Positions 1 to 1,961 of a stretch of 6,293 bases of DNA are shown in pieces (within the stretch, counting starts at the first letter, position 1; each line of letters starts with the position of its first letter). Under the pieces are notes generated by a model. That model was given only the letters and a program-made list of their open reading frames with translations, was not told the origin of the DNA and did no database searches. A program made the translations under genes and the position numbers. The stretch is from a virus (Duplodnaviria > Heunggongvirae > Uroviricota > Caudoviricetes). The stretch covers positions 1-6,293 of IMG/VR virus record IMGVR_UViG_2671180921_000022; one strand, written 5' to 3'.

Positions 1-696
1 TCACTTCGGGTAAGGCTGAATCCTGGATAGCTTGGTGTTTAGGCGCTTTTTTGCACGCTTATTCAGGAATCTGATGTAGCGATACTGATTAAATTTGTGT
101 ACCACGGCCCGCTCCTTATTAGCCCGCAAATACTCGCCTCGTTGCCCTCCGCGCTTAATCGCGTTCATCGCTATCTCGTGATACCACTCGCCGTCCAGCT
201 CGTAGAACGTGCTTTCATGGCTACCAATAAAATCAAAATTCGACGCCTGATATACCACGCCAGCACGTCCGCAGCGTTCGTCTGCAAAAGACTGAACCCA
301 CTCAACTGACGGATACAGTAACCTGATAACTTTCAGCGCGTAGCTGATAGCCCGTGATTCAGAATTGCGGGGCATGTCGTCGTGTAGCCACATGCGGTTC
401 AGTTCCATGTAACCCCGGTTATCTGTTTCAAGCACGACACGACGCCCTGAGTTGGGATTAAGGGCATATCCCCACTGAAGAACGCCAACCAGATCACGTC
501 CGCTGAATACGCCCAGATGCAGGTAGGAGTTATTCACAAAACGGCGGGAATAATGCTTTGTCTGAATGATTGTGCGGGCCAGCCAGCAGGATATGGTTTC
601 AACGCGCAACTCCTTTGAACCATAGCCGACAATCCGGCCTTCATACTCAATAACGCAGGGTTTTGTCAGAATGCGTGATTTCTTCTCTTTTCCCAC
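1..696 (-). CDS. mom: Mom-like DNA modification protein (Mu Mom family); 231 aa if started at GTG 696..694, stop TGA at 3..1
   Basis: Long minus-strand ORF directly downstream of, and overlapping by 50 nt, a clear com homologue. The track ORF (1..738) opens with TTG; the first in-frame ATG is at 726 with no Shine-Dalgarno. GTG at 696..694 has GGAG 7 nt upstream and gives 231 aa, which is the length I recall for Mu Mom. Protein identity beyond synteny and size is from memory. Confidence 0.75.
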
Positions 697-832
697 AATA
701 CAGCTCCGTGGGATGCTCTTTGGCATTCGATATGACAATGTAACGTTTACAGCGAGGGCATTTAATTTCTATATGCTTAAAACCTCCTTTAAACAGTAAC
801 TTATTGCAGTTCTTACAGCGAACAGAGTCCAT
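647..832 (-). CDS. com: Com zinc-finger translational activator of mom (61 aa)
   Basis: ATG at 832..830 preceded by AGGGAG. Product [61 protein letters not shown] has CxxC-x15-CxxC and is near-identical in pattern to remembered Mu Com (..[22 protein letters not shown]..). The track ORF start at 865 is a GTG with no RBS and is less likely. Confidence 0.85.
691..713 (-). promoter_or_regulatory. Translation-inhibition hairpin sequestering the mom start codon and Shine-Dalgarno
   Basis: Minus-strand RNA 713..691 is UCCCAC-GGAGCUGUAUU-GUGGGA: a 6-bp stem (713-708 pairs with 696-691) and an 11-nt loop. GGAG is in the loop and the GUG start forms the 5' end of the 3' arm. This matches the Com-relieved occlusion mechanism known for Mu mom. 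Confidence 0.5.
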
Positions 833-905
833 GATTCTCCCTGTGTAATAACCAGATACGACCACCCGGAGGGCTGGGGATATTTAACCACACATGATGT
901 AAAAC

Positions 906-933
906 GACGATCGATATGATGGTATCGATCGTC
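906..933. promoter_or_regulatory. Perfect 11-bp inverted repeat with 6-bp spacer carrying two Dam (GATC) sites; candidate methylation-sensitive operator for the com-mom promoter
   Basis: GACGATCGATA (906-916), spacer tgatgg, TATCGATCGTC (923-933); the arms are exact reverse complements. GATC at 909-912 and 927-930. The element lies 74-101 bp upstream of the com ATG in the only sizeable non-coding gap of the window (833-973). Confidence 0.5.
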
Positions 934-973
934 ATAATCTATACAAAACGCTTAATTATTAACCTTTTTTGAG

Positions 974-1444
974 TCAGCTTTCTGCGGCACTCTGAGAAAG
1001 AGGCTCTGCTATCAGGGACAGCAGTCTCTCTGTCTGTTTTCTGTTTTCGAGGGTAATTGCGCAATCCCGTTTCACCTCCTCTGCATATAATCTGACACTT
1101 TCCGCACTTTTTTGTATCTGCATTGCAATCTCTTCGAACTTTTTAAGAGATTCAGGGCGCAAATCTGCATCTGTCACCGACAAAAAATCGTTAAGCGAAC
1201 CGTCCTGTGAATCTTCATAAACGCGAATGATGCCGATTTCTGAAAGGCGCTGTGCGCTCTGTGTCAGGCGAACACTGTACACGCCCGGCAGAACGGGGAA
1301 GTCGTACTCCCCGCTCTGTGTAGTGACGTGGCTGAAAACACCTTTCAGAATCCCTGCACGGTTGTGCAGGGAGGTCAGCGTGATGGTTGTGCCGCCCAGC
1401 GGTTCTCCTGTGGGCGTTTTAATCACACCTTTAAGCTGCGGCAT
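974..1444 (-). CDS. Orphan side-tail-fibre N-terminal domain protein (lambda Stf N-terminal domain-like, about 156 aa), lacking shaft and receptor-binding parts
   Basis: The product aligns by eye to the remembered lambda Stf N-terminus: LKGVIKTPTGEP vs ISGVLKDGTGKP, GVYSVRL vs GQYSVIL, IRVYEDSQDGSLNDFL vs ITVYEDSQPGTLNDFL, DLRPESLKKFEE vs DARPEVLRRLE. The ATG at 1444 has GGAG 7 nt upstream and aligns with the lambda Stf start; track ATGs at 1486 and 1471 are alternatives. The ORF overlaps the tfa stop by 14 nt. Confidence 0.7.
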   Translation of the reverse strand: MPQLKGVIKTPTGEPLGGTTITLTSLHNRAGILKGVFSHVTTQSGEYDFPVLPGVYSVRLTQSAQRLSEIGIIRVYEDSQDGSLNDFLSVTDADLRPESLKKFEEIAMQIQKSAESVRLYAEEVKRDCAITLENRKQTERLLSLIAEPLSQSAAES

Positions 1445-1961
1445 CGGGATGCTCCGGCCAGCTGATGGCATTAAGGGAGGCTTCATCAGTAACGGCGCTT
1501 AAATCCAGCGCTTTTACCGCTTTGATATACGCCATCCACTGCGCAAGACGAGCTTTGTCGTCATCACTGATGACGCCCAGCTCCAGCTCGGCTTTCCAGT
1601 CGGAGGTGATGTCCTTTGCTTCAGTCAGCAGATGCTGGCGTTGTTTTTCTGCCAGTTGCGAATAATCAACAGGAACCGGCAGCACTTCGCCGTCTTTGTA
1701 ATACCAACTGGCTTCAATGCCAAAGCCTTCCGGCAGTTCATCAACTTCCACAATGGTGAAGCCTGCCGGATAAAGACGGGACACGTCTTCTGCCATTGAA
1801 TAAATCACGCCGCTTTCAGGGTGAATGCACAATTTGTATCTCTTCGTGAATTTGTCCATGGATTCATAAAAATCCTGTCCGTCTTCACTGCGGAAATACT
1901 GAATGCCTTCACCATAAGGCATATCTTCAGGGTAGTAACGCGTAACATTTCTGAGTTCCAT
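1431..1961 (-). CDS. Tail fibre assembly chaperone (Tfa; Mu U / P2 gpG family), about 176 aa
   Basis: Product has the characteristic Tfa C-terminal region (..LGVISDDDKARLAQWMAYIKAV..SWPEHP). ATG at 1961 is preceded by AAGGAG (minus-strand TTAAGGAGAAAATAATG). It lies immediately downstream of the fibre gene. The track start at 1997 overlaps the fibre ORF and has no RBS. Confidence 0.85.
   Translation of the reverse strand: MELRNVTRYYPEDMPYGEGIQYFRSEDGQDFYESMDKFTKRYKLCIHPESGVIYSMAEDVSRLYPAGFTIVEVDELPEGFGIEASWYYKDGEVLPVPVDYSQLAEKQRQHLLTEAKDITSDWKAELELGVISDDDKARLAQWMAYIKAVKALDLSAVTDEASLNAISWPEHPDAAA

Follow-up and report, generated by a model that had tools for sequence, protein, structure and literature searches.

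Mom is a toxic DNA-modification enzyme by which phage DNA escapes host restriction, and the control of mom in bacteriophage Mu is a textbook example of a phage gene gated by a methylase and a repressor of the host. The relevant part of the Mu mom promoter (Pmom), called region I and located upstream of the binding site of the C protein, was reportedly studied by Bolker and Kahmann in 1989, Sun and Hattman in 1996 and Hattman and Sun in 1997; the second of these reports, going by its title as cited, is said to show that OxyR represses without blocking the binding of the activator C. In Mu, Dam methylation of GATC sites upstream of mom prevents OxyR binding (PMC7549136, PMC3378877, PMC2909390), and Dam and OxyR jointly govern Pmom (PMC3378877). 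Methylation of GATC also abrogates OxyR binding at agn43 (PMC2909390). The consensus of an OxyR half-site is ATAGxTxxxAxCTAT (PMC2909390), and in opvAB the half-site centres are 32 bp apart, which is the canonical distance for reduced OxyR (PMC4856963). In studies of gtr and opvAB, the change of GATC to CATC has been used as an OxyR-neutral mutation that removes a Dam site (PMC2909390, PMC4856963).

The stretch of DNA analysed here (6,293 nt, hereafter the window) represents, on its minus strand, the right end of a Mu-like prophage. The gene order on this strand is baseplate genes, tail fibre, tail-fibre assembly protein (Caudo_TAP), a truncated tail-fibre ORF, com and mom. The last three are as follows.

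974..1486, minus strand: tail-fibre N-terminal ORF, 170 aa (Pfam phage_tail_N, E=9e-25)
647..832, minus strand: com, ATG at 832, encoding the zinc-ribbon translational activator of mom (Pfam Zn_ribbon_Com, E=2.5e-7)
1..726, minus strand: mom, encoding the DNA adenine modification enzyme (Pfam Mom, E=1.8e-75)

The start of mom at 726 was taken from the annotation of an E. coli relative. The Com protein is 100% identical to WP_001372435.1 of E. coli prophages, and Mom shares 96% identity with Mu Mom. In RefSeq, Com is labelled a DNA-binding transcriptional regulator, while the literature describes it as a translational activator of the mom mRNA; recent RefSeq names for Mom read tRNA(Gly)-dependent adenine aminoacyltransferase. 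Over com, mom and their upstream sequence, the identity to prophages of 23 complete E. coli genomes is 99% or more; over the whole window it is about 90%. A search of the window against Rfam gave no RNA family match.

The ORF at 974-1486 forms the end of the tail operon. It sits after the tail-fibre assembly gene, abuts the com-mom module and holds only the N-terminal domain of the prophage tail fibre; the annotation of the E. coli relative lists it as an incomplete or truncated pseudogene. Between this remnant and com there is a gap of 141 nt (973-833). In Mu, the tail operon and mom are separated by gin, whereas in the window they are directly adjacent, with neither a gin gene nor a G segment between the tail-fibre ORF and com. 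The homology of the com-mom module begins at about 958-964, and beyond this boundary, which looks like a recombination joint, differing genes adjoin the module. A DUF4376 gene takes the place of the tail-fibre ORF in other prophages of the window's lineage, referred to below as type B. The elements described or proposed between the tail-fibre remnant and com are listed here.

906..933, no strand assigned: perfect inverted repeat GACGATCGATA-N6-TATCGATCGTC, from a repeat search, centre at 919/920
927..930, no strand assigned: GATC1, promoter-distal Dam site, occupying the CGAT quarter-site, the right-hand one of half-site A
909..912, no strand assigned: GATC2, promoter-proximal Dam site, occupying the ATCG quarter-site, the left-hand one of half-site B'
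897..942, minus strand: proposed 46-bp operator for reduced-form OxyR (ATAGATTATGACGAT, 16 nt, ATCGTCGTTTTACAT), from homology, symmetry and conservation
928..942, minus strand: putative half-site A, ATAGATTATGACGAT, 8/10 against the OxyR half-site consensus ATAGnTnnnAnCTAT
897..911, minus strand: putative half-site B', ATCGTCGTTTTACAT, a weak 5/10 match at background level, starting 31 nt after half-site A
896..899, minus strand: CATC at the place of the third GATC of Mu, not a Dam substrate
871..884, minus strand: putative late-activator (Mu C/Mor-type) box AATATCCCCAGCCC, from a repeated motif and likeness to Mu boxes
833..870, minus strand: predicted core promoter and short leader, with a Shine-Dalgarno sequence GGAG at 840-837

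The first-pass annotation had reported an exact 11-bp inverted repeat upstream of com-mom, with two symmetric GATC sites each nested in CGATCG and ATCGAT. The repeat search and a direct reading of the sequence confirmed this description. The arms GACGATCGATA (906-916) and TATCGATCGTC (923-933) are 11 nt long each, 100% complementary and 6 nt apart, and the GATC sites are at 909-912 and 927-930. The dyad lies 74 nt from the com ATG (832, minus strand), with Com and Mom identified by Pfam. Among the perfect short-loop inverted repeats of the window, this dyad is the longest. Judged as a repeat alone, it departs only modestly from chance: 13 of 300 dinucleotide-preserving shuffles of the 6.3-kb window (about 4%) also contained arms of 11 nt or more around a loop of no more than 20 nt. 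It is the context that makes the dyad non-random, because GATC is strongly avoided, yet two of the four sites of the window fall in the 141-nt gap upstream of com, 18 nt apart. The four sites compare with 24.5 expected from shuffles, or 31 from a Markov estimate. In a related E. coli prophage (L011, 6265-39500), 48 GATC sites were counted against 149 expected (O/E 0.32), with zero in the 7 kb before Pmom. The host DNA flanking this prophage has GATC at parity (33 vs 36), and the other 4-nt palindromes are less markedly depleted in the prophage than GATC.

Upstream of com, Mu (L001) reads ATAGaaaacgaCGATCgaatcaattaaatcGATCGgtaatacaGATCgattatgccccaATAACC and the window ATAGattatgaCGATCgataccatcatatcGATCGtcgttttaCATCatgtgtggttaaATATCC. 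When the two were aligned, 31 of the 46 operator positions were identical and the geometry was the same. In both, ATAG lies 12 nt before GATC1, GATC1 and GATC2 are 18 nt apart, and 29 nt separate GATC2 from an ATAA/ATAT-CC box; this last offset is found in nine further lineages as well. The location is also that of the Mu operator: immediately upstream of com-mom and co-oriented with it, with the preceding gene on one side and the late-activator box on the other. The dyad core CGATCGA-N10-TCGATCG is common to Mu and the window, and the window extends the symmetry to 11-nt arms. The single architectural difference concerns the third GATC of Mu, 13 nt after the second, which is CATC in the window. 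The alignment thus supports the earlier proposal, which assigned the dyad to the com-mom promoter as a regulatory element homologous to the Dam/OxyR region of Mu, and the comparison agrees with the three GATC sites that the first-pass annotation gave for Mu against two here. Its further statement that Mu is without such a dyad was not borne out, since Mu has the same core with the same 18-nt GATC spacing. The proposed operator presumably also matches the limits of the footprint in Mu.

Taken together, these features suggest that the dyad is probably the centre of a Dam-methylation-sensitive OxyR operator that gates the com-mom promoter and is orthologous to region I of Mu Pmom. The layout of this putative operator is ATAG-N7-CGAT, 16 nt, ATCG-N7-ACAT, with quarter-sites spaced by 11, 20 and 11 nt. 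Its centre, at 919.5, is exactly that of the dyad, and 16 of its 23 pairs of opposed positions are symmetric. The corresponding 46 bp form a pseudo-palindrome in every lineage, with 11-16 of 23 symmetric pairs against about 6 by chance. On this model, the dyad would exist because the tetramer site is symmetric and a GATC is carried by each of its inner quarter-sites, CGAT and ATCG.

The two proposed half-sites differ in their match to the consensus. Half-site A is the only 15-mer of the window that scores at least 8 (1 of 6278 positions), and it matches at 6 of the 7 positions not fixed by GATC (background P about 0.001). At +31, half-site B' reaches only 5/10; its positional equivalents are ATCGGTAATACAGAT in Mu (7/10) and ATCGTTTATATCGAT in agn43 (8/10). 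Compared with Mu, the window is thus better upstream (8/10 vs 7/10) and poorer downstream (5/10 vs 7/10). A combined pattern, in which one half-site scores at least 8 and a partner 31 or 32 nt away at least 5, matched 5 times over 40 kb of the related prophage region, compared with 1.8 times in simulated sequence, so that a motif match alone does not identify OxyR. The consensus scan was accordingly set aside as a stand-alone test for OxyR. Binding of OxyR to 942-897 is instead predicted from homology.

A register suited to oxidised OxyR was also considered. Four quarter-sites 11 nt apart (942-906) read ATAG/CGAT/ATCA/CGTC and end exactly at the edge of the dyad. The second half-site would then score only 4/10 and the dyad centre would go unexplained, and this register was kept as a possible alternative binding mode and not as the main model.

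By analogy mostly with Mu, the methylation sensitivity and the transcriptional effect of the operator may be pictured as follows. A tetramer of reduced OxyR would bind the 46-bp pseudo-palindrome at 942-897, with half-site starts 31 nt apart and the two GATC sites placed in the inner quarter-sites, symmetrically about the tetramer centre. In ordinary dam+ DNA both sites would be methylated, and the N6-methyl groups inside the quarter-sites would exclude OxyR, leaving the phage late activator free to switch on com-mom from its box, 29 nt further downstream than GATC2. With the GATC sites unmethylated, OxyR on 942-897 would keep the toxic mom operon off; as in Mu, it might also bind the hemimethylated DNA present after replication. 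Methylation would be sensed at two sites and not three, because the third is CATC. This CATC, invariant in 24 type-B sequences, would be a natural occurrence of the substitution introduced experimentally in gtr and opvAB.

For the late-activator box, a 14-nt sequence, AATAYCCCCRGCCC, was found in three exact copies in the L011 prophage (28135, 30479 and 38616), all on the late-transcription strand. One copy lies within the tail-assembly gene upstream of the tape-measure gene, another within the DNA-circularisation gene and the third at Pmom. The sequence probably marks the late promoters of the window's phage family. The C boxes of Mu P_I and P_P are ATAACCCCAG/GG (PMC4461284, Table 1), and the window box AATATCCCCAGCCC resembles them; it is nearer to these than to the TTAT-N6-ATAA dyad of Mu Pmom. 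The L011 prophage encodes one activator of the Mor/C family, and its annotation contains no dam gene.

The core promoter was more difficult to place. By the geometry of Mu (box + 28 nt), the -10 hexamer would be CTGGTT at about 855-850, a poor hexamer. Mapping of the -10 and the start by conservation was ambiguous, the candidates CTGGTT (box + 28), TATCTG (box + 25) and TATTAC (box + 33) being all imperfect and variable. The leader of the window is 11 nt shorter than that of Mu. Two other candidate elements were rejected. A GC-rich mini-dyad, GCCC-tcc-GGGT (874-864), was considered as the activator site, but its distance is unsuitable for any plausible -10 and the repeated element is AATAYCCCCRGCCC. 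The sequence AAGCCGGTAAATCCGGCTT was considered as a second type of late-promoter box; the related prophage has two copies but none at Pmom, and the sequence resembles a terminator hairpin. Its two copies in L011 (14420-14438 and 21981-21999) are identical hairpins followed by a T run, located before the lysis genes and the head protease gene, and each has a -10-like hexamer, CACTAT or CATACT, 24 nt after the hairpin centre. This hairpin could be a terminator, an activator site, or both.

On the plus strand, a sigma-70-like match, TCGATA-16-CATAAT (911-938), overlaps the dyad in the direction leading away from com; one such 9/12 hit was found where 0.4 are expected. In Mu, a divergent RNA polymerase site has been reported at Pmom in the absence of C, at a position that differs from the 911-938 match.

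To place the operator in its family, 88 com-mom loci were gathered from E. coli genomes, GTDB genomes, IMG/VR and metagenomes. In 49 of 50 distinct 170-nt sequences upstream of com, a pair of GATC sites was found 18 or 19 nt apart. The exception (L050) has its first GATC displaced, but retains an 8/10 OxyR half-site at offset 31 upstream of the second half-site. The position of GATC1 is kept in 15 of the 16 com-mom lineages examined. A third GATC at +13 is present in most lineages and absent in type B, L004, L053 and L079. The consensus over eight lineages, which share just 24-31 of the 46 operator positions with the window, is AT.G.......CGATCGAT....T...AT.GATCG.TT.....GAT.

Within type B (24 distinct sequences), variable columns make up 22% of the operator and 21% of the activator box, compared with 16% of the com coding sequence, 42% of the linker and 63% of the promoter and leader. 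The region further upstream has 79% variable columns, a value inflated by the homology break at about 958-964. Purifying selection on the operator is therefore visible, the operator being about as conserved as the com coding sequence. Both GATC sites, the CATC, the ATAG and the 9-nt arms CGATCGATA/TATCGATCG never vary in type B. The outer arm GA varies without compensation, and the first base of the spacer is free.

These comparisons bear on the possibility that the extended perfection of the dyad is without a separate function, two copies of a self-complementary CGATCG/ATCGAT block being bound to yield an inverted repeat and the rest being due to chance or recent ancestry. Since CGATCG is self-complementary, symmetry is guaranteed at 6 of the 11 arm positions, and the variation of the outermost positions among relatives and the 4% of shuffles with a bare repeat point the same way. 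Such an explanation covers the extra perfection only and not the element, in which the GATC pair, its spacing, the ATAG and the box distance are kept across lineages that have diverged to the extent given above (24-31/46). We regard it as highly improbable.

The dyad is exclusive to the com-mom module. Of 2.9 million IMG/VR contigs, 17 contained the exact 9+6+9 dyad, each of them a com-mom contig already found via Mom; no second exact copy of CGATCGATA is present in the prophage. As a negative control, the 140 nt upstream of a Pseudomonas phage com-mom homologue contained no GATC. Pseudomonas is not known to have Dam.

Several members of the family show local changes. In L010 (1500-1580, E. 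coli bR_120_Kylling), the operator is retained with its dyad and both GATC sites, and a deletion running from just downstream of the operator into mom has removed the activator box, com and the start of mom. In L008 and L022, an extra GATC located 4 nt before the ATG overlaps the start of com (gGATCatg), and in this sublineage AAC replaces GAC in the left arm of the dyad.

The 16-nt spacer is nearly invariant within type B, although reduced OxyR should not contact it, and its conservation exceeds what the reduced-OxyR model requires. This raises the question of whether the dyad instead serves a different dimeric regulator, of phage or host, as its operator, the Dam sites being incidental. The perfection of the 11-nt arms would fit such a regulator, as would the weak downstream OxyR half-site and the fact that, beyond the need of reduced OxyR, conservation in this lineage extends to the inner bases of the arms and to most spacer positions (CATCA). 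Against it, the dyad travels with com-mom amid differing neighbour genes while keeping the Mu geometry, and it has neither a second copy in the prophage nor another context in IMG/VR. The outer arm bases vary uncompensated (GGC in L007, AAC in L008 and L022). Moreover, the distance of 17 nt between the arm centres corresponds to about 1.6 helical turns; a simple dimer would meet the two arms on different faces of the DNA, an awkward geometry for one of the helix-turn-helix type. The different dimeric regulator suggested in the first-pass annotation finds no positive support, as the flanking ATAG, the 11/20/11 quarter-site spacing and the 29-nt box distance match Mu, agn43 and gtr, where the binder is OxyR. 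We consider such a regulator quite unlikely. Of the variant methylation-sensing operator proposed there, what stands, by homology, is a methylation-sensing operator of the Mu type; the notions of an un-Mu-like dyad and of another regulator do not.

Another possibility is a role of the hairpin at the RNA level, as a terminator or insulator that ends the tail-fibre operon and guards com-mom against late read-through; this role might be added to that of the operator. Folding of the 950-890 transcript gives a 13-bp stem at -20 kcal/mol (z = -3.1 vs shuffles), the tail operon ends about 40 nt upstream in the same direction with no gin between, and a short U run (GUUUUAC) follows the stem. However, a terminator scan raised no flag, as the 8 nt that follow the stem contain fewer than 5 T, and in most relatives the tail is GGTTTGC. 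In Mu and the other lineages the GATC pair is kept, yet the stem has only 7 bp, the loop has 10 nt and a T run is absent; conservation is seen in the pattern of GATC and quarter-sites and not in the pairing. An intrinsic (rho-independent) terminator was therefore rejected, the stem being present but the T run absent by the scan and not conserved, and we find it very unlikely that the element works through RNA.

The Dam/OxyR operator thus remains the preferred reading. The two-site symmetric operator may be a functionally distinct derivative and not just a drifted copy, because only the two inner quarter-sites can be methylated and the downstream half-site is degenerate. It might then use another OxyR register, respond differently to hemimethylation after replication, serve as a hairpin insulator against read-through, or bind a different methylation-sensitive protein. 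We consider such a derivative unlikely.

The agn43 (flu) site of E. coli K-12, ATAGaataaaaCGATCaatatctattttatcGATCGtttatatCGATC, has a nearly identical layout, ATAG-N7-CGATC, 17 nt, GATCG-N7-CGATC, with GATC spacings of 19 and 13 nt and half-sites ATAGaataaaaCGATC and ATCGtttatatCGATC separated by 17 nt. It differs from the window in having three GATC sites and in both half-sites scoring 8/10. It lies downstream of the transcription start and is a simple repressor site without a phage activator. The expression of Ag43 phase-varies, whereas for mom this is not known (PMC2909390).

In the gtr operons of Salmonella and P22 and in opvAB, the half-sites are ATCG-N7-CGAT or ATAG-N7-CTAT, about 32 bp apart, with GATC in the quarter-sites, as in the window. 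Those of P22 gtr are ATCGgtaacaaCGAT, ATAGataaaaaCTAT and ATCGcttgtatCGAT, with starts 32 nt apart. The gtr and opvAB regions have three or four half-sites, which give alternative tetramer positions and heritable ON and OFF states, and their GATC sites form pairs 13 nt apart within one half-site. In contrast, the window has one GATC per half-site and just one visible tetramer-sized site, upstream of a promoter that would depend on an activator.

The dyad operator therefore appears, from these sequence comparisons, to be a natural two-GATC relative of the known Mu switch and not a new type of operator or mechanism. The putative Dam/OxyR operator would move with com-mom as one module through many enterobacterial Mu-like prophages. 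The core that is invariant across lineages consists of two GATC sites placed symmetrically within the inner quarter-sites of a 46-bp OxyR-type pseudo-palindrome, and the third GATC seems dispensable in nature. The locus may serve as a natural experiment on the number of methyl groups needed to exclude OxyR, and it offers a compact two-site methylation switch for comparison with those of Mu, agn43 and gtr.
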